Assembly (NCBI GenBank): GCA_020639315.1
Contig: JACKGM010000001.1
Coordinates: 310,767 to 374,766 of the forward strand
Length of the DNA: 64,000 nt
Origin: Candidatus Nomurabacteria bacterium
Lineage (GTDB): Bacteria; Patescibacteriota; Saccharimonadia; JAGOAT01
Direction of reading: 5' to 3'
This document shows positions 452 to 34,022 of this stretch, piece by piece. The position numbers were made by a program, and so were the translations under genes. Within the stretch, counting starts at the first letter, position 1; every line of letters starts with the position of its first letter. Below the pieces are notes generated by a model. The model had not been told where the DNA came from and searched no databases. It saw only the letters and a list, made by a program, of their open reading frames with translations.

Positions 452-480
452 TTGGAGAGACTTGTAAAGTCTAGTAAAAT
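452..480 (+). promoter_or_regulatory. Putative promoter TTGGAG-N17-TAAAAT; the -10 box ends 6 nt before the ATG at 487, implying a leaderless mRNA
   Basis: Hexamers at 452-457 and 475-480. There is no Shine-Dalgarno sequence before 487. Confidence 0.35.
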
Positions 481-486
481 GGTAGT

Positions 487-3806: not shown

Positions 3807-6800
3807 ATGTCAACACAAGATAATAAAAGTCAAGACACTGGTTTAGGATATTCTTATATCGAACCTTCATCTAGAGGTAAGGGGGGAGGGAATACAAAAG
3901 ACCAAAACCATTCTCCTTTTGAGCCTACACCTCTCCCTGAGCCTACGCCTCTCCCTGAAAATGAACCGATAGTGCCCATTGCGGGAAGGCAATCTAGTAG
4001 AAATAAAAAAAAAGAACAAACTAATATAGTTGAATCTGAAGATAGTCAAGAAGAAGACAAACCTCTTAGTCGAAAGATAGCTGATGGGGTATGGAAGCGC
4101 AAAAAAGGATTGGCATATGGGGGGCTTAGTGCACTAACGGTGCCGGGACTATTTACCTTAATGTTTACGCTTATGTTACCTTTTAAGTTACTTCACCTTA
4201 AAGAGAACTTTGAAGATTATGTTGGTCAAAAATTACAAGAAATTGTCCAGACTAGGATGGAAAGATTTGTAATTAAGCATGCGCTTTCGGGTTTTACAGG
4301 ACAAGGCTCAAGAAAAACAGGGCATCCTATCAGAGACTTAGTTTATAACTATCGTACAAATAAGATGGAAGCTACTCTTAAGAGTAGAGGGGTAGATATA
4401 GAACTCAATAGAGATGGCACTCTGAGTTCTATTATTGATAATACAGATCCTCATAACCCAATTCGTCATGATTATATTCCGGATGAAGGAGTTAAAGTTG
4501 GTCATGAGAGAAGTGCAGAAAAAAAATTTATTAATAATTTACTAGAAGAAACAAACCTTGATGTCAACATTGGTTCTAGTATAAGGAATGAAGAAAGGCT
4601 TCTTAAGAAGGTACACCATCGTCTGCGGTGGCAAAAAATATTTTTTCCTAAGACGCGTGCAAAGATCCATGCGGCTAAAGTTAATATAGCTGAAAATATT
4701 AAAAGTTTTATTAAAGGTAAGCCGATTTTAGATTTTTTACCAGATGTTTTAACGGAAAGCTCTGAGGGTGGTAAGAAAAACTTGTCGTCTAGGGTAGCTG
4801 ATCGGATAGCTGCTAAGAGTCCAATTTTACAAAAACTTGTAAAGGTAATCAGTGTTGGGGCTGTTGCCACAAAGGTTGTTGGATTTTTTTGTTCCCTAGT
4901 GAACGGAGTGCAGCATATTGTTGACGAAGTAGAAAGTAATCAGTTTGAAGCACTAGCCAACTCTGCAGCAGTACTTTTGACTGGAGCCGATCAAGTAATC
5001 GCAGGTGATGCTAGGTCTGAAGATGTAGGTGCACTAGTTAGTAGATATGTCGGGTCAAGTTTCGATACTAGTGTAGGTACAAAAACTATAATGACACGGG
5101 GAAAAGCAGAGGTTAGTGAGGATGAGCTTAATCCAGCAGCAAATCTAAAGTCAGAAACCGGAGTCAAACAAATACTAGATGGTTTCCTTACATTTATAGA
5201 TGCTGTAAAGCATCCAAAGGGTTTTTTCGCGAGCATTCCAGGGGTTGGATGGATTCTAGATCTTCCTGGTATCGGCGCATTTGCAGGTGCATTATTAGAT
5301 TTTAATGGTTTTATCATTAACCTGGTACTAGATCAGGGCTGTTCTATTTATAATAACAGTATTGGTAAAGGAGAAGAGTTTGTGTCAAATCAGCTGGAAA
5401 AGATTCCAGGTATTAAGCAGGCTTTGGGTTTTGTTAAATCGATAGGAGAAAAAGGGTTTGATATGGTTGTACATGCAGCAACAGGTGATATGTTTGATTT
5501 TGATAATGCTACAGACGAAGAAGCTAGTGATTACATGGGCAGTGCATTTCTTATAGGGGGAGATATTGGAACACAACAAAGTATTAAGGCAACTGGTGGA
5601 TATAAAATTGAGGGACAAGATTTGGAGCAATACAGTGATAGGGTAATAACTAGAATTTTAGATGAAGAGCGCCAAGCAAGTATTGCTGAAAGAATCTTTG
5701 CCATTGATAAACCATACTCTCTAACTGCTACTTTGTTATTTAGTTTACCAACAAGCTGGGGGCAAATGCTTGGAAGTTTACCTGGTATGACCAATGGCAT
5801 ATTCAAGCTGAGTTTTTATACTGGGTTTATTAATCAATTTAAATCTATTATCGTACCAGATTACAATCTTGCGTATGCTACCGCTTACGCCTATCCATTC
5901 AATGACATGGTACCACAGTATGGTATGAGAGTAGATGTTTTAGACTATATTAGCTCAGATGATATAGAAGAAGCATTTGGCTTAGTTGATCGTGTAGACC
6001 AGGCAGAGGCCAATCAGCAGAAGATAGATGCTATATATAGTAAGTATCATAGTTGTTTTAGCGAAGAGATAGACAAGCCGTTATTGAAATACTCAGAAGG
6101 GTGTCAAAAGTTAATAGATAATTCACCTACTATCTTTGATAAGGCAGTTATAGATGACGATGGGAACACTAAGCAAGTAAAGGCTACAGAGTTTGAGCTG
6201 GCTTCATTGTATTGTGTTGACTTGTCCTTGACTATATCTTCCCTCAGTATTAGTGCAGAATCAGACGCCCATGGAACGAAAGACCCATGTATCAGGGAAG
6301 ATATAGAGGAAGATAGGATAGTCAATACTATCTCTGCAGGTTCTGGATTGTTGGTTGAAGATGGTGGTTTGACTAGTACTGGCAATAAAGTAATTGATAA
6401 AAGTCTGGTAGACCCTGATGATATCGTGACAGTCTCAGGCGGGGGTAAGGTTAACGCTAGTATTGCAACCAATATAGAGAAATTACTAGCTGCTGCTAAG
6501 GATGATGGGATTAATTTTGTTGTGGGTGGATATAGGACTGCTGCAGCTCAGATTGAACTTAGAAAGGCCCATTGTGGTACAACTCAATATGATATTTACG
6601 AAAAGCCCTCTAAGCAATGTAATCCCCCTACTGCCCGCCCTGGTCAATCTAACCACGAAAAAGGGTTAGCTATTGACTTTGGCATTGTGGGGGGTCGTAC
6701 TTTGTGCTATGGAAAGACTACCTGTGGGCCGGGTGACCCCGAGAAAGAGGTTGAGGCATATAATTGGCTTGTCAATAATGCAGCAAAATACGGTTTATAT

Positions 6801-6845
6801 AAGCTTAAGGCTGAGGCTTGGCATTGGTCAGTGGATGGTAGGTAG
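3807..6845 (+). CDS. Large polytopic T4SS-associated protein with a C-terminal M15B/VanY-type peptidoglycan peptidase domain
   Basis: Several hydrophobic segments are present (LSALTVPGLFTLMFTLMLPF, VISVGAVATKVVGFFCSLV, GVGWILDLPGIGAFAGALLDF). The C-terminus has GQSNHEKGLAIDF and EAWHW, matching the SxHxxGxAxD and ExxH zinc-peptidase motifs. Confidence 0.65.
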   Translation: MSTQDNKSQDTGLGYSYIEPSSRGKGGGNTKDQNHSPFEPTPLPEPTPLPENEPIVPIAGRQSSRNKKKEQTNIVESEDSQEEDKPLSRKIADGVWKRKKGLAYGGLSALTVPGLFTLMFTLMLPFKLLHLKENFEDYVGQKLQEIVQTRMERFVIKHALSGFTGQGSRKTGHPIRDLVYNYRTNKMEATLKSRGVDIELNRDGTLSSIIDNTDPHNPIRHDYIPDEGVKVGHERSAEKKFINNLLEETNLDVNIGSSIRNEERLLKKVHHRLRWQKIFFPKTRAKIHAAKVNIAENIKSFIKGKPILDFLPDVLTESSEGGKKNLSSRVADRIAAKSPILQKLVKVISVGAVATKVVGFFCSLVNGVQHIVDEVESNQFEALANSAAVLLTGADQVIAGDARSEDVGALVSRYVGSSFDTSVGTKTIMTRGKAEVSEDELNPAANLKSETGVKQILDGFLTFIDAVKHPKGFFASIPGVGWILDLPGIGAFAGALLDFNGFIINLVLDQGCSIYNNSIGKGEEFVSNQLEKIPGIKQALGFVKSIGEKGFDMVVHAATGDMFDFDNATDEEASDYMGSAFLIGGDIGTQQSIKATGGYKIEGQDLEQYSDRVITRILDEERQASIAERIFAIDKPYSLTATLLFSLPTSWGQMLGSLPGMTNGIFKLSFYTGFINQFKSIIVPDYNLAYATAYAYPFNDMVPQYGMRVDVLDYISSDDIEEAFGLVDRVDQAEANQQKIDAIYSKYHSCFSEEIDKPLLKYSEGCQKLIDNSPTIFDKAVIDDDGNTKQVKATEFELASLYCVDLSLTISSLSISAESDAHGTKDPCIREDIEEDRIVNTISAGSGLLVEDGGLTSTGNKVIDKSLVDPDDIVTVSGGGKVNASIATNIEKLLAAAKDDGINFVVGGYRTAAAQIELRKAHCGTTQYDIYEKPSKQCNPPTARPGQSNHEKGLAIDFGIVGGRTLCYGKTTCGPGDPEKEVEAYNWLVNNAAKYGLYKLKAEAWHWSVDGR

Positions 6846-6847
6846 GG

Positions 6848-7801
6848 ATGCGTAGCAATAGATTGCTGATCACTACTATGATAATAGTAGGGTTGATTAG
6901 TATTGGTATTACAATTTTTAATAGGTCTGATAATGATCATAATGTAAGTTTAAGTCGGCATGTGGGAGATTTAAAAGTTGGTCTAGTTACTGATGGGGTG
7001 GATAGGCTTGTCGGAACTTACGAAGAATATATGGTTTACCAGACGTTAGATGTGGTAACCGTATATTCGTTATTCGGACAACAAATAATTAATCAAATAG
7101 ATGGTATAGCTGACTCTTGGTTATTAGGGGACGGTAGGGTTGTTGCAAATTTAATATCAGGTGGTTCTGTAATGATTAAAGAGGGTGTTGTTAGTAAAAG
7201 TGACCGAGAAGTTATCGTACTGTCAGGTACTATGTTTTACCGGGTATACGCAGATTTGGATAATGAAGATTATGGCTATCTTGTAAATCTATATTTTGAA
7301 GATGGCAGACTATTTCTTGACGGTATTCTTACAGATGAACATGGAAAACCCCAGTTATTACTTACTAAATTTAAAAATGGATATATTTATACAACTGATA
7401 ATGTCCAGGCAGATTATTTTTACTGGCATATTCTGGATAGTGAATTTAGGGAAGTTGATGATATTGAGGCAGACTTTGTTAGGGACCAAAAGTTGATTAA
7501 GGGGGTTGGTTTATTGGTTGATATTGGTAATGTTTATTATAAACTGGATCAAGATTATAATCTGGTAAGATTTGATTGGCCCAATAAAGACCTAGACTTT
7601 GAGAGTTTCTTTGAGAATCTATACCTAGACACCAGTAAAGACAACTCTGGTATTTATAACTTTTCAAGTGATAATCCGGTTACTACTAGAATGGAGCTAA
7701 CTTTAGCATCAGGACTAGTATTATCCGATATTACAGATGTAAAAGAATATCAAGAAGGGTATTTATATTTGGCAAAAGGAGCAGTATGGTACACAAGATA
7801 G
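6848..7801 (+). CDS. Hypothetical membrane-anchored protein (single N-terminal TM helix)
   Basis: 317-aa ORF tightly packed in the operon, with the N-terminal helix LLITTMIIVGLISIGITIF. Confidence 0.5.
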   Translation: MRSNRLLITTMIIVGLISIGITIFNRSDNDHNVSLSRHVGDLKVGLVTDGVDRLVGTYEEYMVYQTLDVVTVYSLFGQQIINQIDGIADSWLLGDGRVVANLISGGSVMIKEGVVSKSDREVIVLSGTMFYRVYADLDNEDYGYLVNLYFEDGRLFLDGILTDEHGKPQLLLTKFKNGYIYTTDNVQADYFYWHILDSEFREVDDIEADFVRDQKLIKGVGLLVDIGNVYYKLDQDYNLVRFDWPNKDLDFESFFENLYLDTSKDNSGIYNFSSDNPVTTRMELTLASGLVLSDITDVKEYQEGYLYLAKGAVWYTR

Positions 7802-8706
7802 TGATTTCAATCTTGGTTCTAGTAAACATCTTTATCTATTTTTTTGCAAAAAACTATATTCAACCGGTTAAAGCTGATGTCGAGTTGTGTGGGGAAGCGG
7901 GTAGAGTTAATCGAATCAACCTTGGTATCGAGTATTATGATTGCGAGGATGAATTGCCAGAAATACCACAAAAGGTAGAGAATACAGTTACTTTTGTCGA
8001 GGGCATTCCGCAGCTTTATGATAAAGAAAATAATCTTATCGAATTTGATCAGGACGGGTATCCCTTAGGTGTGGTTGATTATACAAATGTTGCAGACCCA
8101 CAAGCTTTCACTGAGGATGGTAAACCTGTGGTAATTTATGGTATTGACGCATTATATATTGTAACAGGAGGAGGCATTGTGGAGGACGGTATACCAGCAA
8201 AGTTAAGCGATGTGGTTGTCGTAGGTGCTAACGCTTGTACTACTCCCCTAATGCCAAATATTATTGAGACACAAAAGTTAGCTGATGTCATTAATGAATA
8301 CATCAAGTCAAAAAATCCAGGATCGCCATTTGTCGGTTTTGGGTCAGATTTTGTTCAGGCAGGAATGGATTATCAGGTTAACCCGTTGTTAATTGTAGCC
8401 CACGCATTTATTGAAACAAATTTTGGTCAAGCAGGGTCTGGTATTTCTAATGGTAGCCATAATGCTTTTGGTAGGACTGCTGGAGAAGGGCAACCATCGG
8501 CAGGTGGTTTTTATAAGTACGATAGTTTCCAGGAGAGCCTATATCAACAGGCTTATTATATGAAGAAAAAGTATATTGATATAGGGTTATCAAGTTTAGA
8601 ATTATATCTAAAGGAATATGCAGAAGGATGGCGAGAATATATACCTAAGGCTACAAAAGTAATGAATGAAGTAGCTAAAAATGCGGAGATGACTTGTGAC
8701 GATTAA
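7786..8706 (+). CDS. Membrane-anchored protein with a GH73-like (glucosaminidase) peptidoglycan hydrolase domain
   Basis: It has an N-terminal TM helix. The C-terminal pattern NPLLIVAHAFIETNFGQ...HNAFGR...YKYDSFQESL resembles the GH73 catalytic-Glu region. Confidence 0.45.
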   Translation: MVHKIVISILVLVNIFIYFFAKNYIQPVKADVELCGEAGRVNRINLGIEYYDCEDELPEIPQKVENTVTFVEGIPQLYDKENNLIEFDQDGYPLGVVDYTNVADPQAFTEDGKPVVIYGIDALYIVTGGGIVEDGIPAKLSDVVVVGANACTTPLMPNIIETQKLADVINEYIKSKNPGSPFVGFGSDFVQAGMDYQVNPLLIVAHAFIETNFGQAGSGISNGSHNAFGRTAGEGQPSAGGFYKYDSFQESLYQQAYYMKKKYIDIGLSSLELYLKEYAEGWREYIPKATKVMNEVAKNAEMTCDD

Positions 8707-9946
8707 TAAACACAGTGCAATAATTATGGCTGGAGTAATTTCTTTAGTCACAATAACTCTTGTTGGTTATTGGATAGGTCAACCCAAAGGAATTTTAGAT
8801 ATCCAATCACTTGATTTAGGTGATGGGGTTTTAGGTTTGGTTAATTCAGATAGTCAGATTGAATGGCAATTTTATGATGAGTCTCGATTAATAGGGTTTA
8901 ATGGTAGAAGTTTTTTTATTTATAATTTCAATGATAAGACTTTTGATAAATTAGTAGTAGACCAATTTTTGCCAAAGATTAATAACTACTCACTCTCTCC
9001 TGATAAACAGTTTATAATATTTGAATCTAGTGGAGACCTACTTGGTAGCTTAATGTATAATATCTTGGATCAAAAATTTTTAAATAAGGCTGTGAATTAC
9101 CTCTGGACTCTAAATATTCAGACCGGTGAGTATCAGTTGATTGGAGACAATCGAGTAATCGACTGGGTCTGGTCTGATAACCATACAATCTACTACACCC
9201 TGGATCAAGGTAGCTCTATGAATATTATTTATAATCTAGATTTAGAGAGGGGTACCAGGGAAGAGCTAACAAGGGTGGCAAGAGTTCAAAGTTTGGGTAA
9301 GTTGAATAATAAACTTGTTATATATAGACTGTCAGTTGAGGGTCAGGCTGTTACCAGCTTGATAGAAGGTGGCCAAGAGACAATCCTATTTAAGGATAAA
9401 TACGTAGAATTCTCAAAGTATCCCAGTAGGTACTATCTCGAAGAAAAAAATAACAAGCAGTATCACTTGAATAGTTTGGGTCAGGATAAAGGGGTTCTAG
9501 ATACAGGTATTGTTATTGATAATCAGAATTTTTCATTTGTGGGCTTAGACTTGATTAGCTATGATCAAAAATCAAATAAACTTTTAGTATATCAGTTAGC
9601 GAATCATATCTTAGTCGAATACCCCCTGCAGGATAAAATATCAGACCCAGACAGTATATTTGTATTTGATGGTAGTGTACTTATATACACTGAGGATGAT
9701 AATTTATGGCATACAAACCTCGATTTACCAGTTGATAAATTTGAGCCCAAAGAGAGTATTGATAGACAGGGTTACCTGATAGAGTACTATCAAGACAAAC
9801 CAGATTTACAGTTTCTAACCAAAGATATTAGCGAAGTAATGGACGATTTTGATAACTTTTTATCTGATCAAGGAGTGAACCCACTACTTGTACCGATTAC
9901 TGGTTTGCTATCAGATAGTATTTATTACGATCAGTCAATTCTGTAA
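8696..9946 (+). CDS. Hypothetical membrane-anchored protein, possibly beta-propeller-like
   Basis: 416-aa ORF with a GTG start (alternative ATG at 8726). It has an N-terminal TM helix and a repetitive beta-rich sequence. Confidence 0.45.
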   Translation: MTINKHSAIIMAGVISLVTITLVGYWIGQPKGILDIQSLDLGDGVLGLVNSDSQIEWQFYDESRLIGFNGRSFFIYNFNDKTFDKLVVDQFLPKINNYSLSPDKQFIIFESSGDLLGSLMYNILDQKFLNKAVNYLWTLNIQTGEYQLIGDNRVIDWVWSDNHTIYYTLDQGSSMNIIYNLDLERGTREELTRVARVQSLGKLNNKLVIYRLSVEGQAVTSLIEGGQETILFKDKYVEFSKYPSRYYLEEKNNKQYHLNSLGQDKGVLDTGIVIDNQNFSFVGLDLISYDQKSNKLLVYQLANHILVEYPLQDKISDPDSIFVFDGSVLIYTEDDNLWHTNLDLPVDKFEPKESIDRQGYLIEYYQDKPDLQFLTKDISEVMDDFDNFLSDQGVNPLLVPITGLLSDSIYYDQSIL

Positions 9947-10300: not shown

Positions 10301-10328
10301 TTGGTTAAGAGGTGATATCAGGTATAAT
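10301..10328 (+). promoter_or_regulatory. Putative promoter TTGGTT-N16-TATAAT for the giant gene
   Basis: Hexamers at 10301-10306 and 10323-10328. The in-frame ATG at 10339 lies 10 nt after the -10 box. Confidence 0.35.
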
Positions 10329-10338
10329 GATAAGCAGT

Positions 10339-13300
10339 ATGGAGGGAGTTAAAAAGTTTTTTAGTCTGGATAGGCTATTTGATAAATGGCATCTTGTTTT
10401 GCTAGTAAGCTTTAGCTTGGTGATTGCTTATTTTCTGGTAAGGTTTTTGGACAATCAAAATCCGGTAGTCTTGCAGGTTGGGAATCAGGAGCTGAGGGTG
10501 GAAGACCTTCGTCAAAAGTTAGAGCTAGGACTAGATTACGGTAATCAGCCAGAGGACACTGCAAATGCGATAATAGATATGGAGGCGATTAGGCAAGTCA
10601 ATGCTGGGCTTGGGATAATCCCAACAGAATCAGATATAGAACAATACCTTGGCAATTATACGGACAAGGCACTAGCAGAGAATATCGTACTTCAAAAAAA
10701 TCTTTACAAGTATGCTACCGAGAGTAGAATGCTCAAGCAATACTATGGAGAATATCAGGGTCAGGTCTTTATTTTCCCCTTTGATACCATGGATGGTAGT
10801 CTTGATCAAGAGCGGAAGGATTATGCCTACACAAAAGCTCAAGAGTATTTTACAGAGATTCAGACTGGGGAGAATCCAAATCAAGTACTAGCTGCAATAA
10901 AGGCAGATACCAGACTTCAGCCTGGCTCAGATTCGGATAATTCTAGTGCTAGCTTAGATATCGATTCTAGTGAAAACCTCGAAGATATTTATGGGATTAA
11001 CTACCCAGAGATATTAGATGAACTTTGGAGACTAGATAGTCCAGGTTTAAAAGATATTGTAATGATTAGCCAAGTTGATTCGGAATCTGGTGAGGAATAT
11101 TATAGTCAATATTTTTATTTTATTAATATTACAAATTTTAAAGCTCCGAGACTTGATATACAATCAGAGTATCAGCAGGCAATTGACAAGCTGTTAACTG
11201 AAAGCTATAATTTTGAACCGGATAAAATTAAGCAAATTGGATTTAGTGGTCTTAATAACATTGCTGGTAGACTAAAAGGGTCATTAATACCCAATGTTTA
11301 TGCAAGTGCCGCCAAGAATCATCAGGCAGGTCCTAGTATATTCAAGCAAATTACTAAATATAAGACTAAAAGATCTAAGATTCTCAAAACTTTTGGGGAT
11401 ATTAGTGGCCGAGTCCTGGATCCTGACGGTTATGCGGCACCGGGCTCAATAGTTAGACTCAAATATAAGAATGTCGAGAATCCAAACTGCTTGAAGTGTG
11501 ATAGCGCATTTGTAGATATTGGCAAAGCAGGCAGTACTAAAGGTAAAGGATTAGGTGATGAGTCTGCACCCAGGGTAGATTATCGTAAAGTAAATGCTGG
11601 GGTTCTCTATAACACCACTGAGATGCAAGGATATCATGATTATGTCGAATTAATTACCGATAGTAATGGATATTATTCCCTTAGCTCGATTGATTTATTG
11701 ATTGATTGCAATCGTCATATCACAGAGCATGGAGGGGGTATAGCAGTAGAGATTGCGGTTGAAGTAGTAAATCAATATAAGGACGAACTTACTCTTAACC
11801 AGCCAGTTCAAACGATGCAGGTAGGGGGATCTAGCAAATTGAGATTTACCCAAACAAACCAAAAAAAGTCTAATTTAGCATCAAAGCTCCTTAAGGGTTT
11901 AGAATTTAAATTGGGCAAGAGAGTAGAGGCTGCTGATAATAATCAGGTATTAGTATTTGGTGACTCGATTGCCAATGGCATAAGTAGTGTACTGGATGAA
12001 TATTTACCCGAAGGTTGGTCTATGACTGAAGACTCTGATGATTTACTCTCAAAAGATGGTAGGCATGCGTACAATACATCTGATAACCCTAGCCTTAGCG
12101 GGCTTGCTAATGCTGAGACTGTGGTAGCTAGTGACGCTGGCGAACAGGCAGATGTGGTAGTCATATCCTTAGGGGCGAATGATGTTCCAGCAGATGCTAG
12201 TGATCTGTCAGGTAGTAATGGTTATGCTAATGCCATGCAAGACATTATCAGCTTGTTTATCGACAAACAGATTATACTTGTGGGTTTGTATTATGAAGGT
12301 AGTAATTATAATAATACAGTCAATGCTTATTTAGAGGGCATAGCAGAGGCTAATGAAGGTATTAGCTATATTGATTGGGATAGTATGGTTAGCGAGGATA
12401 GTAGCCTAGGTCAAGGTAGGGATCCTCACCCCAGTCCTGCTGGTTATAAGCAGATTGCTCAAGCGATCGGAGATTATCTTAATAATACTACACCGACTGA
12501 AGCTGGCGCCGAAGAGATAGAAGCGATTGAAGTCTCTGGAGTCTCGGCGGAAGCTTTAAATGATATTCCCGAAACAATGCTTTGGAGATACAAAAAGTAT
12601 TCTGAAGAGTACTGTCCCGGTTTGGATTGGACTGTGATTGCTGGAATGTATAAAAAAGAAAGCAATCATGGACGTTACCCAAATAATACCGTGGCCGCTG
12701 ATGGCACAGTATCGAATCCTATCATTGGAGATGTTTTAACTAGGTCTGGGGAAAGGGCTATTGGGCCTGGACAGTTCTTGCCTTCTACTTGGTCTAGTGT
12801 TGGGTTTGATGCAGACGGGGATGGTGAAGTTAATGCCCAGGATGCGGATGACGCAATAGCCAGTAGTGTAAGATACATTTGCCCAGGTGTGGGTAAAAAC
12901 GATAATTACAAATCTGCAGTTGCGATTTATAATGGCTCAAGTTCTTATTATACAGGTGTCATGAACTGGTCTAGCAGATATAAGGGTACTTTAAGTGAGT
13001 CGTTATCAATCACATCAGCTGCAGATGCAGGTGGTTCTTCTGTCAATGAAGGGACTAGTTCTGCAGATGTTAAGTCTAATAATGATCATGTGGTCAAAGC
13101 ACCAGCAATAGCGACCCGCACAAGAACGACTCCAAGGGAAACACCCTCGGGCACTTCTTTTAATTCACGTAATTCAATCAATCCTGATCTAGGTGGTAAG
13201 CCTGAGGATAAGCCAGACCCAGACCCAAATCCTCCTGAGACTCCTGATATCGAGGGTAAACTTCCACCCCTCGAACGCCCCGTCATCTCGATCAAAAAAT

Positions 13301-16300
13301 ACGTCGGTCACAGCACTGATGATCTCAGTGATGCCCAAGACTCAGCTACAGCTGTCAAGTTCTATCCTGGTCAATCGATAGTCTATCAAGTAGTAATTAC
13401 TCATCAGTCTGGAGCAGATGCGACCAAAGTAGTCTGGTCTGACGAAAACCTTGATGGATTTGTCTCAGGTGGACTGATGGAACTAGGAGATTGGACTAGT
13501 GATACTCAAGTAGATGACATCTTCTCATTCCCTCTCAAACAAGGAGAAGAGATCACCTTCTTAAGAGAAGGCACAATCTCCCTAGATGCTGGTCTCTTCG
13601 GTCTAGACCAAGAATCAGTTCTTAACTCAACTGCTGCCCTTGAAAACATCGCCAGTGTCGATGAACTCAATGATGCTGATCCTGGGATTGCTAGTGGTGA
13701 TCCTGCTAATATCTTGCCGACGATAGCCGAAGTCAAGCTCGATAAGCTAGTCAGCAATATTAGTGACAATATCTTGGATCAGCCAGCCGATGACTTAGAA
13801 CATACTGTCTTTTTCGGTCCTGGAGAAGAAATCGAATACAAAATGGTCATCACCAACGAGGGTCCAGACGGAGCAGTCGGTCTGATTTGGGCTGATGATA
13901 GTCTGCCGACTTTTGCTACCTTTGAAGGCTGGAAGCTTGAGGATGGCTCAGATGCTCCCGAGATGCTATTTGACCCTTCAGTATCAGAAGATACACTAGA
14001 GTCAGGAGAATCAATTACCCTGATCAACCGTGGTCGGATCAATCCTGATGCTGGAGACTTCGGAGTCGGTACTAGCCTAGACCCCCGGGGTGGCTATGAG
14101 AATATAGCCTCAGTCGATCCTCTGACCCACGATAGCAACCTAGAAAACAATACCAACCCAGCCTGGATCTCCCCCAAGCTAGTCGACCTCACCATCAAAA
14201 AACAAGTCTCCAACCTCACCGAAACCCCATTCCTCTCCCCAGGCACAAGTCCCTACTACCTCAGTGATGGTCCTATCTACTATGATGCAGATAGTATAGA
14301 CAATGCAGTCTCCTTCGGTCCTAGTGAAGAGATAGAGTACCGTATAGAGATAATAAACAACGGTCCAGACGAAGCCACCTCTATCAGCTTCACTGATCCT
14401 GATCTCCCAGATGAGCTAGTAGACTGGGAGTCAGACGGCTGGATCAACGCTGAGACTGGTGAAACCGTATCCTCAGGAGATACCATCTTCCCAATCCCAG
14501 CCGAAGGAGCTCCGACTGAATTCCTCTGGCCTGAAGAGTCCAAGACGATTGATCCTGAGACCAAAGCAGAAACCACAGTCAACAATATCACTGAAGGTAA
14601 GAGAGTCAGAATAGTCCTAACCAAGAAAGGTAGAATCAAGAACGACCTAGCTAATACCGATTGGTTCCAGTCTAATACTGCTCACCAAAACACTGCAGAA
14701 GTCTCTACTATCAATCCAGAAACCAACTATGACAACAATACCAACGATGCCTACATCGACCCCAAGGTCACAGACATCATCATCGGTAAAGTCGGTCAGA
14801 CTGGTAATGACACTGGTCTAGCAGGTAAAGAACTAACTTGGACGATTAGAGTAGTCAACAATGGTAAAGACTCAGCTATCTCTCTCGTAGACAATGGAGG
14901 AATCAAGCTAACCGACTACCTCAACCTCAAAGACACCTACAATGAAACAGTTACCTATCAATGTGTCCCTGCCTATGCCTGCAGTGTCCCAACCGGAGAA
15001 ATCAACTCCACTGACAATCCCGAAGGTATCCTAGACCTAGAACTCTACCTCGGCCCTGGCTTTGGAGACATGGAGCAAGTAGACTTCATCGATATCCTCT
15101 CAGATGAGGAGCTGTCAGCCAACCAAACCGACACTACCAACAACAACACCACCACCAACAACAACACTAACACCACTAACACCAATAACACCAACACCAC
15201 CACCAACACTAACACTACCAACAACACTACCAACAACACTGACACCACCCAAACCACCAATACTGATCTAACCACCCTCCCCGTCTGTGAGACTGGTAGA
15301 TTCATCGGTATTAACAAGGCTACTGACACTACTACAGGCTTCAACCCCGATATCAACGAGGATGGCAATGGAGACCTCTATGTTCTCTTCAATACCAATT
15401 GCTTTAGCTCCTACCCTGACCTCAGCCACTTCGAGCTAACAGACCTCTCCCTTAGCAGTGATGAAGTAGTCAACTACCTCACCCAGTATCAAGGTGGTAA
15501 AATTGCTTACTATCAAACCCCTACTCACCTAAACACCACCAATCAAGTAGACATCCAAATCACCGCTAGACTAGCTGACCATGTCACCTATGGTGATGAT
15601 GTCACTACTCAAGCAGTAGATGAGATCTGTAATCCTAGTGACAAGAACAACCCTGATCAAAAAGTCCATGTCGAAAAGACCGAAACCGTAGCCTGGGAAT
15701 TGTCACTAGACAATAACACCGCTCCCCTAAGATGTATCCCAGTAATGCTCTGTTACAACGAAGATGGTCAAGCCTTAGCTAGCTATCCCGGTAAAGAAGG
15801 AGAAGACTTCTATCTCTCATTCGTCGGAGTAGACAATGAAGGTAACAAACTCTATGATCAATCTCTAGATGAACTAATCGCTAGAGATGACTTAGCAGGA
15901 CTAGATGTGATCTGTCGTAAGCCTACTACCTGTGAGCTTAAAGTAACGCGGACGATAGTACTAGCCAATGGTACAGAAGAAACCACTGATGTCGAAGTCA
16001 CCGAACTATTTGATGGCTCAGCTGCTGGTGCTGATACCACTGACCTCGGATACTACAACTTTAGCCTAGAGTGTCAAAACCTCGAAGACGGACAATCCCC
16101 CAACCTCACGATTGAAGTCATCCGCCGTCTCTTCGGTCCCTACTTCGCGATCGAAGATGGTTCAGCCACAGTGCTCGGAGAAATAGTCAAAGGTGTCTAT
16201 CCTGAAGACAATGACCTAGACATCACTCGTCATACCCACATCCTGACCGCTACCAATGAAATCTCTTCAATCTTCTGCTCACTAACCGAGATCATGGCAG

Positions 16301-17109
16301 CCGGAGAGAGTGTAGACTGTACTAGTCCTAGTGACCTAGCTGGAGCCGGATACCCAATCCGTCTAGACGGAGGTAGCAAGGACAACTTTGTCAATGTACT
16401 TGACTCAATAGAGAGTCTAATCGCAGAACCAGACTCCTCCCCCTATGAAGTAGTTACTATTAACAACCTAAACCAAATCCCCCTTGACCTCAGTGATGGT
16501 AAGAGCCCAGACTTCGAACCTGATCCCAACTCCACCACTACCCCAGTCCCTTACCCCACCCTCTATGTCTATGATGGAGATCTAGAGATCTCAGCTAGTC
16601 AAGCTATGCACTACAATGCAGGTCTAGCTACTATCTACGTCAGGGGTAATGTCTACATCAATGGAGACATCATCAGAGATGACAATACAGTGATAGAAGA
16701 CATAGATGAGTATCCCAACCTAGGTATTATCTCTACTGGCAATATCTACATCAGACCAGACACCTCCAAATCAGTAGAGACTCCCCAAGTAATTGACGCC
16801 AGTCTCTTCGCCCAAGGTATGATCGAAACAGCCTACCGTCAAACCACTCAAACCCCAATCCCCGAATACTATACCAACCAACCCCTAATCTTCCATGGTA
16901 CAGTAGCCTCCAAGGGAGATGAGAGTGTCCCAGGAGTCAAAGACCCAATCACCAATCAAGTCTATGCCTTCAAACTAAACAGGACCAATGTCTCAGTCAC
17001 CCTAGGACAAGACTGTAACAATACTCAAGTCTCTGAATGCTTTGCACCAGACAACTCAATCTTTATTGCTACTCCTCCGGGGTTTGAGGATCGGCTTAGC
17101 TCGGAGTGA
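10339..17109 (+). CDS. Giant surface protein (about 2250 aa): N-terminal TM anchor, SGNH/GDSL hydrolase, lytic transglycosylase, four DUF11-type repeats, an Asn/Thr tract and a large C-terminal region
   Basis: One uninterrupted ORF; the ORF track starts it at GTG 10312. SGNH blocks are VLVFGDSIANG, ISLGANDV and DPHPSPAGY (about 11940-12480). Transglycosylase motifs are YKKESNHG, IGPGQFLPSTW, DADGDGEVNAQDADDAI and AIYNGSS (about 12580-12960). Repeats end in ENIASVD or NTAEV...DNNTND. Confidence 0.8.
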   Translation: MEGVKKFFSLDRLFDKWHLVLLVSFSLVIAYFLVRFLDNQNPVVLQVGNQELRVEDLRQKLELGLDYGNQPEDTANAIIDMEAIRQVNAGLGIIPTESDIEQYLGNYTDKALAENIVLQKNLYKYATESRMLKQYYGEYQGQVFIFPFDTMDGSLDQERKDYAYTKAQEYFTEIQTGENPNQVLAAIKADTRLQPGSDSDNSSASLDIDSSENLEDIYGINYPEILDELWRLDSPGLKDIVMISQVDSESGEEYYSQYFYFINITNFKAPRLDIQSEYQQAIDKLLTESYNFEPDKIKQIGFSGLNNIAGRLKGSLIPNVYASAAKNHQAGPSIFKQITKYKTKRSKILKTFGDISGRVLDPDGYAAPGSIVRLKYKNVENPNCLKCDSAFVDIGKAGSTKGKGLGDESAPRVDYRKVNAGVLYNTTEMQGYHDYVELITDSNGYYSLSSIDLLIDCNRHITEHGGGIAVEIAVEVVNQYKDELTLNQPVQTMQVGGSSKLRFTQTNQKKSNLASKLLKGLEFKLGKRVEAADNNQVLVFGDSIANGISSVLDEYLPEGWSMTEDSDDLLSKDGRHAYNTSDNPSLSGLANAETVVASDAGEQADVVVISLGANDVPADASDLSGSNGYANAMQDIISLFIDKQIILVGLYYEGSNYNNTVNAYLEGIAEANEGISYIDWDSMVSEDSSLGQGRDPHPSPAGYKQIAQAIGDYLNNTTPTEAGAEEIEAIEVSGVSAEALNDIPETMLWRYKKYSEEYCPGLDWTVIAGMYKKESNHGRYPNNTVAADGTVSNPIIGDVLTRSGERAIGPGQFLPSTWSSVGFDADGDGEVNAQDADDAIASSVRYICPGVGKNDNYKSAVAIYNGSSSYYTGVMNWSSRYKGTLSESLSITSAADAGGSSVNEGTSSADVKSNNDHVVKAPAIATRTRTTPRETPSGTSFNSRNSINPDLGGKPEDKPDPDPNPPETPDIEGKLPPLERPVISIKKYVGHSTDDLSDAQDSATAVKFYPGQSIVYQVVITHQSGADATKVVWSDENLDGFVSGGLMELGDWTSDTQVDDIFSFPLKQGEEITFLREGTISLDAGLFGLDQESVLNSTAALENIASVDELNDADPGIASGDPANILPTIAEVKLDKLVSNISDNILDQPADDLEHTVFFGPGEEIEYKMVITNEGPDGAVGLIWADDSLPTFATFEGWKLEDGSDAPEMLFDPSVSEDTLESGESITLINRGRINPDAGDFGVGTSLDPRGGYENIASVDPLTHDSNLENNTNPAWISPKLVDLTIKKQVSNLTETPFLSPGTSPYYLSDGPIYYDADSIDNAVSFGPSEEIEYRIEIINNGPDEATSISFTDPDLPDELVDWESDGWINAETGETVSSGDTIFPIPAEGAPTEFLWPEESKTIDPETKAETTVNNITEGKRVRIVLTKKGRIKNDLANTDWFQSNTAHQNTAEVSTINPETNYDNNTNDAYIDPKVTDIIIGKVGQTGNDTGLAGKELTWTIRVVNNGKDSAISLVDNGGIKLTDYLNLKDTYNETVTYQCVPAYACSVPTGEINSTDNPEGILDLELYLGPGFGDMEQVDFIDILSDEELSANQTDTTNNNTTTNNNTNTTNTNNTNTTTNTNTTNNTTNNTDTTQTTNTDLTTLPVCETGRFIGINKATDTTTGFNPDINEDGNGDLYVLFNTNCFSSYPDLSHFELTDLSLSSDEVVNYLTQYQGGKIAYYQTPTHLNTTNQVDIQITARLADHVTYGDDVTTQAVDEICNPSDKNNPDQKVHVEKTETVAWELSLDNNTAPLRCIPVMLCYNEDGQALASYPGKEGEDFYLSFVGVDNEGNKLYDQSLDELIARDDLAGLDVICRKPTTCELKVTRTIVLANGTEETTDVEVTELFDGSAAGADTTDLGYYNFSLECQNLEDGQSPNLTIEVIRRLFGPYFAIEDGSATVLGEIVKGVYPEDNDLDITRHTHILTATNEISSIFCSLTEIMAAGESVDCTSPSDLAGAGYPIRLDGGSKDNFVNVLDSIESLIAEPDSSPYEVVTINNLNQIPLDLSDGKSPDFEPDPNSTTTPVPYPTLYVYDGDLEISASQAMHYNAGLATIYVRGNVYINGDIIRDDNTVIEDIDEYPNLGIISTGNIYIRPDTSKSVETPQVIDASLFAQGMIETAYRQTTQTPIPEYYTNQPLIFHGTVASKGDESVPGVKDPITNQVYAFKLNRTNVSVTLGQDCNNTQVSECFAPDNSIFIATPPGFEDRLSSE
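15121..15270 (+). repeat. Low-complexity ACC/AAC/ACT codon tract encoding an Asn/Thr-only linker inside the giant CDS
   Basis: It translates to TDTTNNNTTTNNNTNTTNTNNTNTTTNTNTTNNTTNNTDTTQTTNTD. Confidence 0.9.
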
Positions 17110-17140: not shown

Positions 17141-17310
17141 TGTCATCCTCCAGTTAAATACTGGATCTCCGGTATTACCCTCCGGGTAATCCGAAGATGA
17201 CAGGAGGAGGGCATTGTCATCCTCCGAAGTTCGGAGAACTTACGGGGGATCCAGTATCTTGCATCGTGCATTGTCATCCTCCGAATTCTCCTTGTCCTGT
17301 CATTCTCCAA
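17141..17310. repeat. REP/BIME-like hairpin repeat cluster A
   Basis: There is a full forward unit at 17216-17257 (GTCATCCTCCGAA-hairpin-TTACGGGGGATCCAGTAT) and a reverse subtype-2 unit at 17158-17202. Half units GTCATCCTCC are also present. Confidence 0.8.
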
Positions 17311-17385
17311 AATCCCCTATTCCCCTTGCCAAGACTATGGCGGTTGTGGTTAAATGAAATAGTAGGAATTTGAAAACAAATAAAA

Positions 17386-26560: not shown

Positions 26561-26664
26561 CTGTCGTCCTCCGAATTCTAAACCTGTATTGTCATCCTCT
26601 GAAACCTACTACTCTTCTGTCATCCTCCAAAGCTCAGAGAGCTTACGGGGGATCCAGTATTTGA
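26561..26664. repeat. REP/BIME-like hairpin repeat cluster B
   Basis: Half units start at 26563 and 26591. A full forward unit lies at 26619-26660. Confidence 0.75.
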
Positions 26665-28591: not shown

Positions 28592-28622
28592 TATTATTGG
28601 GCTTGTTCTCTAATATTTGTAT

Positions 28623-28954
28623 TATAGCAAGTTAAAAACAAAACCAGACTTTTGACCCAACTCTAGAGTCTATAACCCTGTTGCCATATAAACTTGCGAG
28701 GTCAAAGCTGATGATTTTTATTCCAGAATACCAAAACACGACAAAGCATAACAGGAGTTACGCTGCGAAGTGTTTTGCTAGTCTGGGGCAAAAATGGCAG
28801 TTTTGAAGCCGTGAGGTTATATGGCAACAGGGTTAGTTTATCAAGCTAGTTTTCTTACTCACCATATCTATGGATATGGCTCTTAAGAAGAACTACCTTT
28901 CTAGTTCTCTATAGTACAGCTCAAATTGTCTGGTTTTGGTTTGAGCTTGCTATA
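28623..28954. mobile_element. MITE-like element family 1, long copy (332 bp), carrying a nested palindromic insertion at 28674-28834
   Basis: The terminal inverted repeats are TATAGCAAGTTAAAAACAAAACCAGAC and GTCTGGTTTTGGTTTGAGCTTGCTATA. The internal element is bounded by a perfect 18-bp inverted repeat, AACCCTGTTGCCATATAA / TTATATGGCAACAGGGTT. Confidence 0.75.
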
Positions 28955-28963: not shown

Positions 28964-29210
28964 TAATGCGGAGATACTGGATCCCCCGTAATCCTCTTCA
29001 TAGGATTCGGAGGATGACAATGCACCTCTCTCCTGTCATCTTCGGATTTCTCTAAAAGAGAAATACCGGAGATCCAGTATTTGAATTTGGTATTAAAGTA
29101 ATGCGGAGATACTGGTTCCCCCGTAAGTTCTCCGAACTTCGGAGGATGACAAGATAAGGGACGGGTTTCGGAGGATGACAATGCCCGGGTTGGTTCTAGG
29201 AGGATGAGAA
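28964..29210. repeat. REP/BIME-like hairpin repeat cluster C, with units in alternating orientation
   Basis: Units lie at 28974-29018 (reverse), about 29036-29080 (forward, subtype 2) and about 29109-29150 (reverse). Half units are also present. Confidence 0.8.
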
Positions 29211-29219
29211 CTTCTGGAA

Positions 29220-29663
29220 CTAGGCTGCGACGACTTTGATCTTGCGAACTTTTTCTTGAGCAACCTTTGGAATCTTGATAGTTACTACACCGTTTTCCAT
29301 TTTGGCTTCTGCCTTATCGGCAATTGCAGGGGTAGGTAAGATTACCGATCTCGAGAAAGATCCCCAGAAACACTCTTGGATATAGTAGTCTCGACCTTTG
29401 GTCTGAGAGGACTCCTCTCGACTTCCCCTGATAGTTACTACATCGTCGCTAATCGCAATGTCAAGCTTGTCTGGGCTAATCCCAGCAATCGGAGCCATAA
29501 TGACCACATGGGTCTTGGTCTGATAGACATCTACATTGAGCTGTCCTTCAACATCATCATCTCCATCAATCCAGCCATCATTGTCGGTTTCATCCATATC
29601 AAGAAATGAATCATCTACTACCAAATCATCGTCATCTTGAACTATTGTACTTTTTCTAGCCAC
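29220..29663 (-). CDS. Small heat-shock protein (Hsp20/alpha-crystallin family) with an acidic N-terminal extension
   Basis: The alpha-crystallin core is VDVYQTKTHVVIMAPIAGISPDKLDIAISDDVVTIRG...ENGVVTIKIPK. The gene has a GTG start preceded by GGAGG. Confidence 0.85.
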   Translation of the reverse strand: MARKSTIVQDDDDLVVDDSFLDMDETDNDGWIDGDDDVEGQLNVDVYQTKTHVVIMAPIAGISPDKLDIAISDDVVTIRGSREESSQTKGRDYYIQECFWGSFSRSVILPTPAIADKAEAKMENGVVTIKIPKVAQEKVRKIKVVAA

Positions 29664-29722
29664 TCTCCTCCTTTGCGCGGTTGCTACTAGCTTAATTGTT
29701 ATAAGATTTTGTTTACAATCTG

Positions 29723-29751
29723 ATTATACTTGAGTAATTATAGATAGTAAA
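29723..29751 (-). promoter_or_regulatory. Putative hsp20 promoter TTTACT-N17-TATAAT (minus strand), back-to-back with the rpsT promoter
   Basis: Reverse complement of 29746-29751 and 29723-29728. Confidence 0.4.
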
Positions 29752-29753
29752 GC

Positions 29754-29782
29754 TTTACATTTCTTAATTTATAAGGTAATAT
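29754..29782 (+). promoter_or_regulatory. Putative rpsT promoter TTTACA-N17-TAATAT; the -10 box ends 7 nt before the ATG (leaderless geometry)
   Basis: Hexamers at 29754-29759 and 29777-29782. The ATG is at 29790 and has no SD. Confidence 0.45.
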
Positions 29783-29789
29783 AACCATT

Positions 29790-30200
29790 ATGCCAATTAT
29801 AAAGTCAGCAATCAAGCGTTCCAAGCAGGAAGTAAGAAGACGAGCCAATAATCGCCTGGTCAAATCTGAATTTCGAGGACTAACTAAGGAGTTTATGATT
29901 GAAGTGAAGGCTGGCAAATACGATCAAGAGCAATTTAAGAAGGTAATTTCTAGTTTAGATCGAGCTGTCAAGAAGGGAGTGTTACACCGTAACACAGCAG
30001 CCCGTAAGAAATCTAGCTTAGCCAAGCTAGCTAATACTGTCAAAAAGTCCAGTAATCTAGTAGACGATCAAGCTAAGGTAGTTGCCAGCAAAAAAACTGA
30101 AGCTCCAAAGAAAGCTGTCAAGAAAAGTACCAAAACTCCTACTGCTGATACTAAGAAAACTCCAGTCAAAAAGACTTCAGCCAAGAAAACAACTGCTTAG
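29790..30200 (+). CDS. rpsT: 30S ribosomal protein S20 with a Lys/Ala/Thr-rich C-terminal extension
   Basis: The N-terminus MPIIKSAIKRSKQEVRRRANNRL is typical of S20. Residues from about 88 to 136 form a basic low-complexity tail. Confidence 0.85.
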   Translation: MPIIKSAIKRSKQEVRRRANNRLVKSEFRGLTKEFMIEVKAGKYDQEQFKKVISSLDRAVKKGVLHRNTAARKKSSLAKLANTVKKSSNLVDDQAKVVASKKTEAPKKAVKKSTKTPTADTKKTPVKKTSAKKTTA

Positions 30201-30201
30201 T

Positions 30202-30310
30202 TATAGCAAGTTAAAAACAAAACCAGACTTTTGACCCAACTCAGGAGTCTATAAAGCTAATTTTCTATAGTACAGCTCAAATTGTCCGGTTTTGTTTTGA
30301 GCTTGCTATA
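30202..30310. mobile_element. MITE-like element family 1, short copy (109 bp)
   Basis: It has the same terminal inverted repeats as 28623-28954 with most of the interior missing. It starts 1 nt after the rpsT stop codon. Confidence 0.75.
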
Positions 30311-30328
30311 CTTAGCTCTTCTTTTCCA

Positions 30329-30415
30329 AGGTGTCACCGTACAAATCAAGTGAATTATGGCATAATTCAGGTCAATAGTATCTTTTTGTGTTAAAAATAA
30401 CTGTGAGGTGTCACC
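30329..30415 (+). repeat. 87-bp element, copy B, with GGTGTCACC palindromes at 30330-30338 and 30407-30415
   Basis: It has the same block lengths and the same 77-bp palindrome spacing as copy A at 337-423. Confidence 0.6.
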
Positions 30416-30445
30416 CCGATGACGACCCAGATGACGATGAAGGTC

Positions 30446-30860
30446 AAATACTGGATCCCCCGTAAACCCTTCGGGTTTCGGAGGATGACAAGACAAGAGA
30501 GAGTTTCGGAGGATGACAAGACCCTCCCCGTGTCATCTTCGGATTTCTCTAAAAGAGAAATACCGGAGATCCAGTATTTGAATTTGGTATTAAAGTAATG
30601 CGGAGATACTGGTTCCCCCGTAAGTTCTCCGAGCTTCGGAGGATGACGAGAGTTGGGTCACTAAGCCAAAATTTCGCAGGGATTTATGTGAGATCCAGTA
30701 TTTGGGTTAGGAATTAGGACAATGCAGAGATACTGGATCCCCCGTAAACCCTCTGGGTTTCGGAGGATGACAATGCACTATGCCAGATACTGTGTCACCG
30801 TAAGTTTTTTGAACTTCGGAGGATGACAAGACAGGTGGCAGGTTTCGAGGGACGACAAAA
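30446..30860. repeat. REP/BIME-like hairpin repeat cluster D, the largest cluster
   Basis: Reverse units lie at about 30448-30490, 30606-30647, 30730-30772 and 30787-30828. A forward subtype-2 unit lies at about 30533-30577. The segment 30531-30650 differs from 29034-29153 at only 2 of 120 positions. Confidence 0.8.
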
Positions 30861-30883: not shown

Positions 30884-31237
30884 CTAACCGCCAATACTCT
30901 TTAGAACAAAGCCGATAATCGCGTAAGACAGTAGGGCAATCACTATCCCAATGATTGCATAGAGAATAGTATTTCTAGCAGATTCAAATGCCTTGGGGTC
31001 TCCTTGAGACAGTATCATCCTCAGCCCAGCAATAATAATCACTATCACTGACGCGATGCCGATGATTACTAAAAGAACTTGGGTAACCTTAGAAAAGGTT
31101 GTGTCAATACTCTTGCCTTCAAGATCAGTTCCATTAGCAGCACAGCTTGCTCCACCTGCAATACTTGAGAAATCTGTACACGCAGCGTAAACTTTCCAGC
31201 TAAATAGTCCAAGTGTGTTATATATAAAATCTATCAA
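30884..31237 (-). CDS. VirB2/TrbC-like T4SS pilin paralog 1 (no obvious signal peptide, TTG start)
   Basis: It has a Cys-X12-Cys loop followed by two TM helices, VLLVIIGIASVIVIIIAGL and ILYAIIGIVIALLSYAIIGFV, flanking QGDPKAFESARN. Confidence 0.6.
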   Translation of the reverse strand: MIDFIYNTLGLFSWKVYAACTDFSSIAGGASCAANGTDLEGKSIDTTFSKVTQVLLVIIGIASVIVIIIAGLRMILSQGDPKAFESARNTILYAIIGIVIALLSYAIIGFVLKSIGG

Positions 31238-31242
31238 AATAT

Positions 31243-31596: not shown

Positions 31597-31604
31597 CTGC
31601 CCTT

Positions 31605-32003: not shown

Positions 32004-32115
32004 TTGATCTCCTATGATTATACTTTTATTGACCTTAAGCATTATTGTACCAAGTTTTATGATTTCTGCAAGGGGCAAATAATCACAAGCAAAATTTTGT
32101 GCTATGCTAGTTTTG

Positions 32116-33933: not shown

Positions 33934-33975
33934 TTTTGACTGTACTGTATCATAATGTTAGCGAATAACTGTGAA

Positions 33976-34010: not shown

Positions 34011-34022
34011 TATAATAACAAC

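Follow-up and report, generated by a model that had tools for sequence, protein, structure and literature searches.

Four intergenic gaps in a 64,000-nucleotide (nt) stretch of a Candidatus Nomurabacteria bacterium genome (GTDB lineage Bacteria; Patescibacteriota; Saccharimonadia; JAGOAT01) contain clusters of a hairpin-forming repeat. We consider it likely that these repeats are a long-form, two-tier variant of the NTS/dRS3/Ssn-related motif (SRM) hairpin repeats and not a new family. The stretch, hereafter called the window, covers positions 310,767 to 374,766 of the 445,775-bp contig JACKGM010000001.1 (forward strand; GenBank assembly GCA_020639315.1). A preliminary description, made from the letters of the window, had reported a REP-like intergenic hairpin repeat family with at least ten copies in four intergenic clusters. 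The REP-like character is supported by our analysis, and the copies were confirmed at their positions, with ten intact units recovered by a covariance model.

The reference point for the identification is the work of Chenal et al. (Nat Commun 2025; PMC11893778), who described the Neisseria NTS, CGTCATTCCCGCGMAVGCGGGAATCYRG, which contains the classical dRS3 repeat, and generalized it to the SRM, a motif spread across bacteria. Across bacteria the repeats flank ssnA, a 94-amino-acid (aa) single-domain GIY-YIG gene (cd10448). SsnA binds the hairpin solely as single-stranded DNA (ssDNA) of one strand, and not as double-stranded DNA, RNA or the reverse strand; recognition requires sequence and hairpin together (PMC11893778). 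The cut falls a few nucleotides upstream of the repeat, cleavage relies on the three nucleotides before the palindrome, binding depends mostly on the C right after it, and the enzyme is able to cut a stem built from two separate strands (Fig. 6b in PMC11893778). In Neisseria, NTS clusters adjoin membrane and host-interaction genes, and the repeats reduce the incorporation of incoming DNA that carries them. The Ssn/SRM system was first described in 2025, chiefly from RefSeq Pseudomonadati.

A covariance model was built from an alignment of 13 copies (nine distinct units from the window plus four from two metagenome contigs) and scanned unfiltered across all 64 kb. It recovered ten intact units (60 to 75 bits; E values of 1e-13 to 1e-18), one decayed copy (36 bits) and one remnant, and nothing else. 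Every copy lies in 4 of the 17 intergenic gaps, between 17.1 and 30.9 kb, and in the window the family is intergenic only. In order of position, the gaps (clusters 1 to 4) lie downstream of a 2265-aa surface protein and ahead of pilM, past the final pilin-like gene in the type IV pilus operon, between argS and hsp20, and between rpsT and three tandem pilin-like genes of a type IV secretion system (T4SS). Seven intact copies have the subtype 1 layout, GTC-ATCCTCCG-AA-NNNN-loop-NNNN-TT-A-CGGGGGAT-CCAGTAT, and three have the subtype 2 layout, GTC-ATCTTCGG-inner hairpin-A-CCGGAGAT-CCAGTAT; subtype-2 units are always oriented opposite to neighboring subtype-1 units. A third outer stem, ATATTCCA/TGGGATAT, occurs in metagenome contig L077. 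The 5′-arm motif TTCGGAGGATGAC has 14 occurrences in the window at two mismatches or fewer, compared with 0.97 in shuffles.

The invariant positions of the units are the determinants of SsnA, and the family is therefore not undescribed, as the preliminary description had supposed. GTC lies directly 5′ of the palindrome, where SRMs carry their cleavage determinant, in 13 of 13 copies (the preceding base is T, or C in one copy). The main binding determinant of SRMs, a C followed by YRG directly 3′ of the palindrome, corresponds to an A(T/A)-CCAG that is invariant in the alignment, and all ten intact units terminate in ...GAT/GAA-CCAG. The columns without any variation across the 13 copies are GTC-AT, the pairs T.G and C-G, and A-CCAG. 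The window units also share the SRM trait of an oriented, hairpin-forming, clustered, multicopy intergenic repeat.

The strict published SRM pattern, HGTCWYN(0-2)YYVSBRHN(0-5)WNVSBRGN(0-2)RNCYNB, had 0 matches in the window, as did dRS3 (ATTCCC-N8-GGGAAT) and, even at three mismatches, the NTS sequence. Since the inner hairpin of the window units occupies 14 to 18 nt in place of a loop of 2 to 7 nt, the strict pattern misses every copy. When only N(0-5) was relaxed to N(0-20), the pattern returned nine matches, which were nine of the ten intact units, compared with a mean of 0.64 and a maximum of 4 in 100 dinucleotide shuffles. It is because of this difference between the strict and the loop-relaxed pattern that we call the units a long-form, two-tier variant.

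A pattern scan of reference genomes returned at least 73 loci, about two-thirds of which were chance or coding matches. Among the matches listed, the same architecture was found in about 17 genomes, and the taxa included Doudnabacteria, Saccharibacteria, Peribacteria, Gracilibacteria, Roizmanbacteria, Rickettsiales, Legionellales, Neisseriaceae, Phycisphaerae and Caldisericota. The form common to these genomes (again among the matches listed) is GTCATCC(T/C)C..., a variable middle and ...GGGGATCCAGTAT, and canonical NTS-type units such as GTCATTCCCGCGCAGGCGGGAATCCAG often stand beside the long forms. Long forms made up 47 of the 83 hairpin units in the retrieved loci; none of these 47 passed the strict SRM pattern, compared with 15 of the 36 short forms. 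Because long forms are invisible to the published pattern, SRM counts and host range have probably been underestimated. The exact subtype of the window was found in the metagenome scan in only two short contigs (L077 and L078), and a scan of viral contigs gave 12 loci, all of them chance matches with no hairpin and no ssn.

One scanned locus, L005 from Phycisphaerae, has a 95-aa GIY-YIG open reading frame (ORF) that lies ~65 to 200 nt from several units. This ORF has more than 8000 homologues that are 70 to 80% identical across phyla; many of them are on contigs of less than 1 kb, a length that fits a gene surrounded by repeats, and none of the homologues returned was assignable to the genome of the window. 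All four ssn loci that we inspected (L005; L079 and L097, both from Daviesbacteria; and L096) have NTS/SRM-type hairpins within ~200 nt. The two Daviesbacteria loci, with ssn beside hairpins, indicate that the ssn/SRM pairing exists within Patescibacteria. L097 also carries, at 6132-6782 (−), a Y1_Tnp gene (IS200/IS605 or RAYT type) 1.9 kb from ssn and an rve-type transposase 1.1 kb further, and this region may be a small mobile-element hotspot.

Several points weigh against the identification, beginning with the null results for the strict pattern, dRS3 and NTS. No ssn homologue was found in the 64-kb window by regular expression, by tblastn (E<10) or by Pfam on ORFs of at least 100 aa; in the published survey, 19% of genomes with more than 200 SRMs likewise had no detectable Ssn (PMC11893778). 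The ubiquity of the T.G opposition in the reference genomes is partly forced by the search pattern, although copies in which it was not forced carry T.G too. All four subtype-1 arrays in the window start 12 to 33 nt past the stop codon of a co-oriented gene, which an RNA-level role predicts as well. Ssn is a hydrolytic nuclease, and the multiplication of the repeats is not explained by such an activity. Finally, it is by analogy that Ssn would be expected to bind and cut long-form units with a T.G pair and a bulge.

The full, decayed and remnant units in the window are as follows.
17158..17201, − strand: intact subtype-2 unit, GTC-ATCTTCGG-ATTACCC-gga-GGGTAAT-A-CCGGAGAT-CCAGTAT; 63.8 bits; inverted relative to its subtype-1 neighbors
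17216..17257, + strand: intact subtype-1 unit, GTC-ATCCTCCG-AA-GTTC-gga-GAAC-TT-A-CGGGGGAT-CCAGTAT; ssDNA fold of −9.4 kcal/mol; 73.8 bits
26619..26660, + strand: intact subtype-1 unit, inner stem GCTC/GAGC; 69 bits; preceded by two 5′ half-units
28974..29018, − strand: intact subtype-1 unit, inner stem TCCT/AGGA, 6-nt loop; 66 bits
29035..29080, + strand: intact subtype-2 unit, left half of doublet copy 1; 61.3 bits
29109..29150, − strand: intact subtype-1 unit, inner stem GTTC/GAAC, tail GAACCAG; 72 bits; right half of doublet copy 1
30448..30489, − strand: intact subtype-1 unit, inner stem ACCC/GGGT; 75.3 bits
30532..30577, + strand: intact subtype-2 unit, left half of doublet copy 2; 59.9 bits
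30606..30647, − strand: subtype-1 unit, broken inner pair GCTC/GAAC; 66 bits; right half of doublet copy 2
30662..30704, + strand: subtype-2 remnant, only the 3′ arm and tail GAGATCCAGTAT left; 11.1 bits, E = 1.9
30730..30771, − strand: intact subtype-1 unit, inner stem ACCC/GGGT, loop AGA; 72.9 bits
30784..30830, − strand: decayed subtype-1 unit, 5′ arm intact and 3′ arm degenerated; 35.9 bits, E = 3e-7

The hairpin is a selected single-stranded structure, and its compensatory changes are real and exceed both controls. Standard pairs fill 97.3% of the alignment cells, compared with 82.7% in column shuffles (0 of 500 shuffles attained 97.3%), and when the 3′ partners were slid by 1 to 3 columns, 23 to 56% of cells paired. 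In the 13-copy alignment, 9 of 15 pairs have changed on both sides. All 13 copies have the T.G at outer-stem position 5 as well as the unpaired A, in agreement with the preliminary description, which had also listed correctly the four inner stems (GTTC/GAAC, GCTC/GAGC, TCCT/AGGA and ACCC/GGGT) and the three paired swaps that distinguish subtype 2 from subtype 1. Its statement that the inner-stem positions stay complementary holds generally, with the exception of one broken inner pair in the unit at 30606-30647. With DNA parameters, the intact units other than that one fold as drawn, at −8 to −10.4 kcal/mol; in two copies, the tail GAACCAG replaces GATCCAG and the closing A-T pair is lost. The GTC strand is 0.7 to 2.1 kcal/mol more stable than its complement, on which the T.G becomes A.C. 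A selected RNA or ssDNA structure had been proposed; the reading as a selected single-stranded structure stands, and the published biochemistry favors ssDNA over RNA, which SsnA does not bind.

No Rfam family matched at the units even at E≤1, and only two tRNAs in the window reached the gathering score. A terminator scan found no T-run after the unit hairpins, which are followed by CCAGTAT, and only incidental small hairpins within the linkers; we ruled out intrinsic terminators because no T-run directly follows the hairpins.

Besides full units, the clusters contain nine units with the 5′ arm only, which the preliminary inventory, sound for the full units, had not distinguished. These half-units consist of GTCATCCTCCGAA and a pyrimidine-rich spacer of 15 to 16 nt, repeat with a period of 28 to 29 nt and usually run into a full unit. 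Two copies of an inverted doublet are also present.
17142..17154, + strand: 5′ half-unit GTCATCCTCCAGT
17273..17311, + strand: two 5′ half-units (17273-17285 and 17299-17311), 26 nt apart
26563..26603, + strand: two 5′ half-units (26563-26575 and 26591-26603), 28-nt period, upstream of the full unit at 26619
29167..29208, − strand: two 5′ half-units (29179-29167 and 29208-29196), 29-nt period, upstream of the full unit at 29150
30505..30517, − strand: 5′ half-unit, 28 nt upstream of the full unit at 30489
30844..30856, − strand: degenerate 5′ half-unit GTCGTCCCTCGAA, 28 nt past the stop codon of a pilin-like gene
29034..29151: inverted tail-to-tail doublet, copy 1, made of subtype 2 (+), a 28-nt linker and subtype 1 (−), bounded exactly by TGTCATC...GATGAC
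30531..30648: inverted doublet, copy 2, with a 1-nt difference from copy 1

The array at 29167-29208 begins 12 nt past the hsp20 stop codon. Orphan 3′ halves are rare, with one remnant in the window compared with nine 5′ halves. Tandem 5′ half-units (21- to 29-nt period) leading into one full hairpin were also seen in other Patescibacteria and in Neisseriaceae, Caldisericota, Phycisphaerae and gammaproteobacteria. Such arrays lie at L077 1333-1501 (a 29-nt tandem array of 5.9 half-unit copies), L005 4080-4154, L027 ~2274, L061 3199 and 5192, L072 5717 and L079 2843-2900; the window's arrangement of a half-unit plus a full unit recurs at two of the ssn loci, L079 and L005. A CRISPR-like reading of the arrays was ruled out, since the repeat is only 13 nt long, there are no cas genes, and the arrays end in a full hairpin unit.

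Comparison with relatives indicates that the family is mobile, given the absence of units at three of four loci in a relative and the exact copying of the 118-nt doublet. In the nearest relative available (arginyl-tRNA synthetase 72% identical, gene order conserved), the sites orthologous to clusters 2, 3 and 4 have no units, and its intergenic lengths there are 263, 133 and 218 nt compared with 353, 628 and 683 nt in the window. Cluster 2 is wholly absent at the orthologous site in relatives L092 and L103. The two 118-nt doublet copies differ by 1 nt and have unrelated flanks. At the cluster-1 site, upstream of pilM, relatives L094 and L095 each have just one unit, which is reversed in orientation and points against the upstream gene. 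The inner hairpins of these two units (L094 1025-1072 and L095 150-191) are wholly different, AAACTCAGAGAGCTT compared with ATTGTCCGAAGGACAAT (15 and 17 nt), with intact outer arms and ~180 nt of flank that is 95 to 97% identical. Such an exchange points to templated replacement or to a hotspot rather than to drift.

The repeats are where short-read contigs of the same strain terminate. One contig (L098; ENA ERZ27309329) links rpsT, by way of the cluster-4 doublet, directly to the right side of cluster 3 and then hsp20, a path to be compared with 29034-30651 in the window. The direct doublet copies are 1497 nt apart, and this path is what would be expected if both collapse. The join is probably an assembly artifact at a direct repeat, although a circle or deletion arising from recombination between the doublets would look alike; given this ambiguity, we set the contig aside as evidence of excision.

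The genes around the clusters include several for surface and secretion functions. The ORF at 10312-17109 (2265 aa) has DUF11, GDSL-lipase and SLT domains and a tract of 9-nt period rich in ACC/AAC at 15113-15268, and the GC skew is strongly negative at 14 to 16 kb; it probably encodes a giant surface protein with a low-complexity linker. Upstream of it, positions 1-9946 encode a PrgI-like protein, a VirB4/TraG-type ATPase, a 1012-aa VanY-domain protein and a glucosaminidase, which together look like a Gram-positive-type T4SS or a conjugation-like set. The three tandem paralogous T4SS-pilin-like genes (PF18895) at 30884-32078 (−), adjoining cluster 4, share DNA repeats of 134 to 224 nt with 88 to 96% identity. 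A MazF/PemK toxin gene is located at 62640-62966. Among window ORFs of at least 100 aa, Pfam detected no transposase, Y1/RAYT, IS110 protein, integrase, prophage or GIY-YIG.

Two further repeat families were observed in the window. One resembles miniature inverted-repeat transposable elements (MITEs), with copies of 333, 110 and 165 nt at 28622-28954, 30201-30310 and 58414-58578 (inverted) and a fragment at 62236-62257. These copies have common ends, in the form of ~28-nt terminal inverted repeats (TATAGCAAGTTAAAAACAAAACCAGAC ... GTCTGGTTTTGGTTTGAGCTTGCTATA), and differ in internal length; two of them directly adjoin hairpin clusters 3 and 4. The other family (32653-32817, 63043-63208, 37625-37698 and 33967-34014) has ends CTCGACTTACGCAAAA...TTTTGCGTAAGTCGAG, and each of its 165-nt copies folds as a long hairpin (DNA parameters; −30 and −41 kcal/mol). 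Long ORFs contain the copies at 32653 and 37625, which may be insertions into genes: the former begins exactly at the end of a DUF6311 match, and the latter lies within a glycosyltransferase ORF.

If the window repeats are long-form SRMs, the GTC-stem-CCAG strand would become single-stranded during replication, DNA uptake or recombination, and each unit on the exposed GTC strand would fold into its hairpin. An Ssn-family nuclease (cd10448), small and with a single GIY-YIG domain, would then bind the hairpin at its conserved outer stem and at the C that follows the stem on the 3′ side, and would cut a few nucleotides upstream of GTC. Under this mechanism, the outer stem and flanks would be read by sequence and therefore be nearly invariant, the middle would need only to close the hairpin and would therefore vary or be replaced while staying complementary, and the T.G and the 3′-side bulged A would make the two strands unequal. 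In their behavior the repeats also resemble non-autonomous mobile DNA, which takes the form of single units, inverted doublets and 28- to 29-nt half-unit arrays and has expanded in this lineage beside pilus and surface-protein genes. Saccharibacteria are naturally competent (PMC10633639), and in a naturally competent host the units would be expected, by analogy with Neisseria, to lower the incorporation of DNA taken up. We infer a resident Ssn in this genome, and likewise the route by which the units spread and their effect on transformation.

It is unlikely, in our view, that the long-form units are more than a length variant, with a new mechanism behind them. Three observations bear on this: turnover of the inner hairpin is much more rapid than that of the surrounding sequence (at one orthologous site it was wholly replaced, with flanks ~95% identical); the T.G and bulged A are fixed while other outer-stem pairs covary; and tandem arrays of 5′ half-units are found in several phyla. 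Templated replacement of the inner hairpin is one possibility; another is that half-units take turns in pairing with the one 3′ arm downstream and so provide alternative cleavage sites. It is also conceivable that a reduced epibiont genome without a resident Ssn retains the repeats.

In a primarily RNA-level role, hairpins in the 3′ untranslated region of the upstream gene would stabilize mRNA or end transcription, as proposed for Escherichia coli REPs; as a secondary effect, an RNA-level role may exist. The placement of the four subtype-1 arrays just past the stop codons of co-oriented genes fits such a role, as does the T/G opposition, which in RNA is a legitimate G.U pair on that strand only. 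However, co-orientation in 4 of 4 cases has a chance probability of ~0.06 to 0.12, subtype-2 units are inverted within the same clusters, and the unit shared by L094 and L095 is anti-oriented to its upstream gene. The hairpins also lack a following T-run and any Rfam match, and the conserved unpaired GTC and CCAG fit recognition of ssDNA by a protein, SsnA ignoring the RNA version, so that we regard a primarily RNA-level explanation as improbable. A partner of the RAYT kind, an IS200/IS605-like tyrosine transposase that binds ssDNA hairpins and moves inverted doublets, would make the units REP/REPIN-type elements. Such a partner was suggested in the preliminary description, and the organization resembles BIMEs and REPINs in its inverted doublets, alternating orientation and intergenic clusters; the REP/RAYT analogy was also drawn by the authors of PMC11893778, and the Y1_Tnp gene of Daviesbacteria L097 is near ssn. 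Yet GTAG occurs within 3 nt of the 5′ end of a unit in 0 cases, no Y1_Tnp (PF01797) is present among window ORFs of at least 100 aa, and in their conserved flanks the units match the SRM family, whose established partner is a ~95-aa GIY-YIG single-strand nuclease, Ssn (PMC11893778). A RAYT-driven origin is thus very unlikely.

Two explanations from other mobile elements have comparably little to recommend them. Under one, the units are targets or fossils of a site-specific recombinase, of the IS110/IS1111 type or phage encoded. IS1111-group elements insert into REP-like hairpins. In Neisseria, dRS3 is the integration site of filamentous prophages and is reported as the target of a phage recombinase (PMC11893778). 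The window has no IS110 element, integrase or prophage, its units are uninterrupted by insertions, and a recombinase accounts for the use of repeats but not for their multiplication, which makes this explanation highly improbable. Ordinary MITEs of a DDE transposon, with the GTCATC...GATGAC ends of the doublet as terminal inverted repeats, would explain why the doublet has inverted ends and is copied as a block, and the window does have two further MITE-like families. We nevertheless consider this the least probable origin, as the two doublet copies have no target-site duplication, single units and half-units far outnumber doublets, and different phyla keep the same outer stem and flanks along with a specific nuclease gene.

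The identification as long-form SRMs places the family in Saccharibacteria, a group of epibionts with reduced genomes and natural competence; in the window, the repeats bracket genes for surface proteins and the type IV pilus operon. Should the result from Neisseria carry over, the repeats would shape which incoming DNA replaces pilus and surface genes. The fixed T.G and bulged A, set against the freely covarying inner hairpin, amount to a natural mutational map that hints at what an Ssn-type enzyme reads and ignores, and this map may be useful for developing Ssn nucleases as ssDNA tools. The repeats also break short-read assemblies of this lineage, with contigs that end there and one that is chimeric across the doublet.

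Among known systems, integron attC sites resemble the units in that the folded single strand is the functional form, with a conserved stem base, a variable center and extrahelical bases that mark the strand. In contrast to attC, the unit stem base has no R″/R′ (GTTRRRY) core layout, as judged without a dedicated attC scan, and the window has no integrase and no cassette organization. A loose GTTRRRY count of 78 across the window is uninformative about the units. The attC reading was rejected on the attC layout, with no core sites recognized at the stem bases (no dedicated scan was made) and no integrase in the window. The REP/REPIN/BIME elements of Enterobacteria and Pseudomonas are likewise short intergenic imperfect palindromes read as ssDNA hairpins, with doublets copied as a block, mosaic clusters and a single-copy protein gene flanked by its own repeats. 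The window units differ from them in that they have no GTAG-type tetranucleotide, their partner is expected to be a hydrolytic GIY-YIG nuclease and not an HUH/Y1 enzyme, and there is no RAYT in the window.

From the described NTS/SRM repeats, the window units differ in the middle (a variable inner hairpin of 14 to 18 nt compared with a loop of 2 to 7 nt), in the fixed T.G at stem position 5 and the bulged A (the Neisseria NTS stem is perfect), and in the 28- to 29-nt tandem arrays of 5′ half-units. The host also differs, being a Saccharibacteria (Patescibacteria) metagenome-assembled genome, whereas the main text of the published study names no Patescibacteria, and the ssn gene was not found within 64 kb. 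In common with NTS/SRM repeats, the units are oriented hairpins with (C/T)GTC just 5′, a palindrome of the form AT...AT, and C then YRG just 3′. They also share many intergenic copies, clustering by surface or host-interaction genes, inverted unit pairs and occurrence in symbiont-type genomes.

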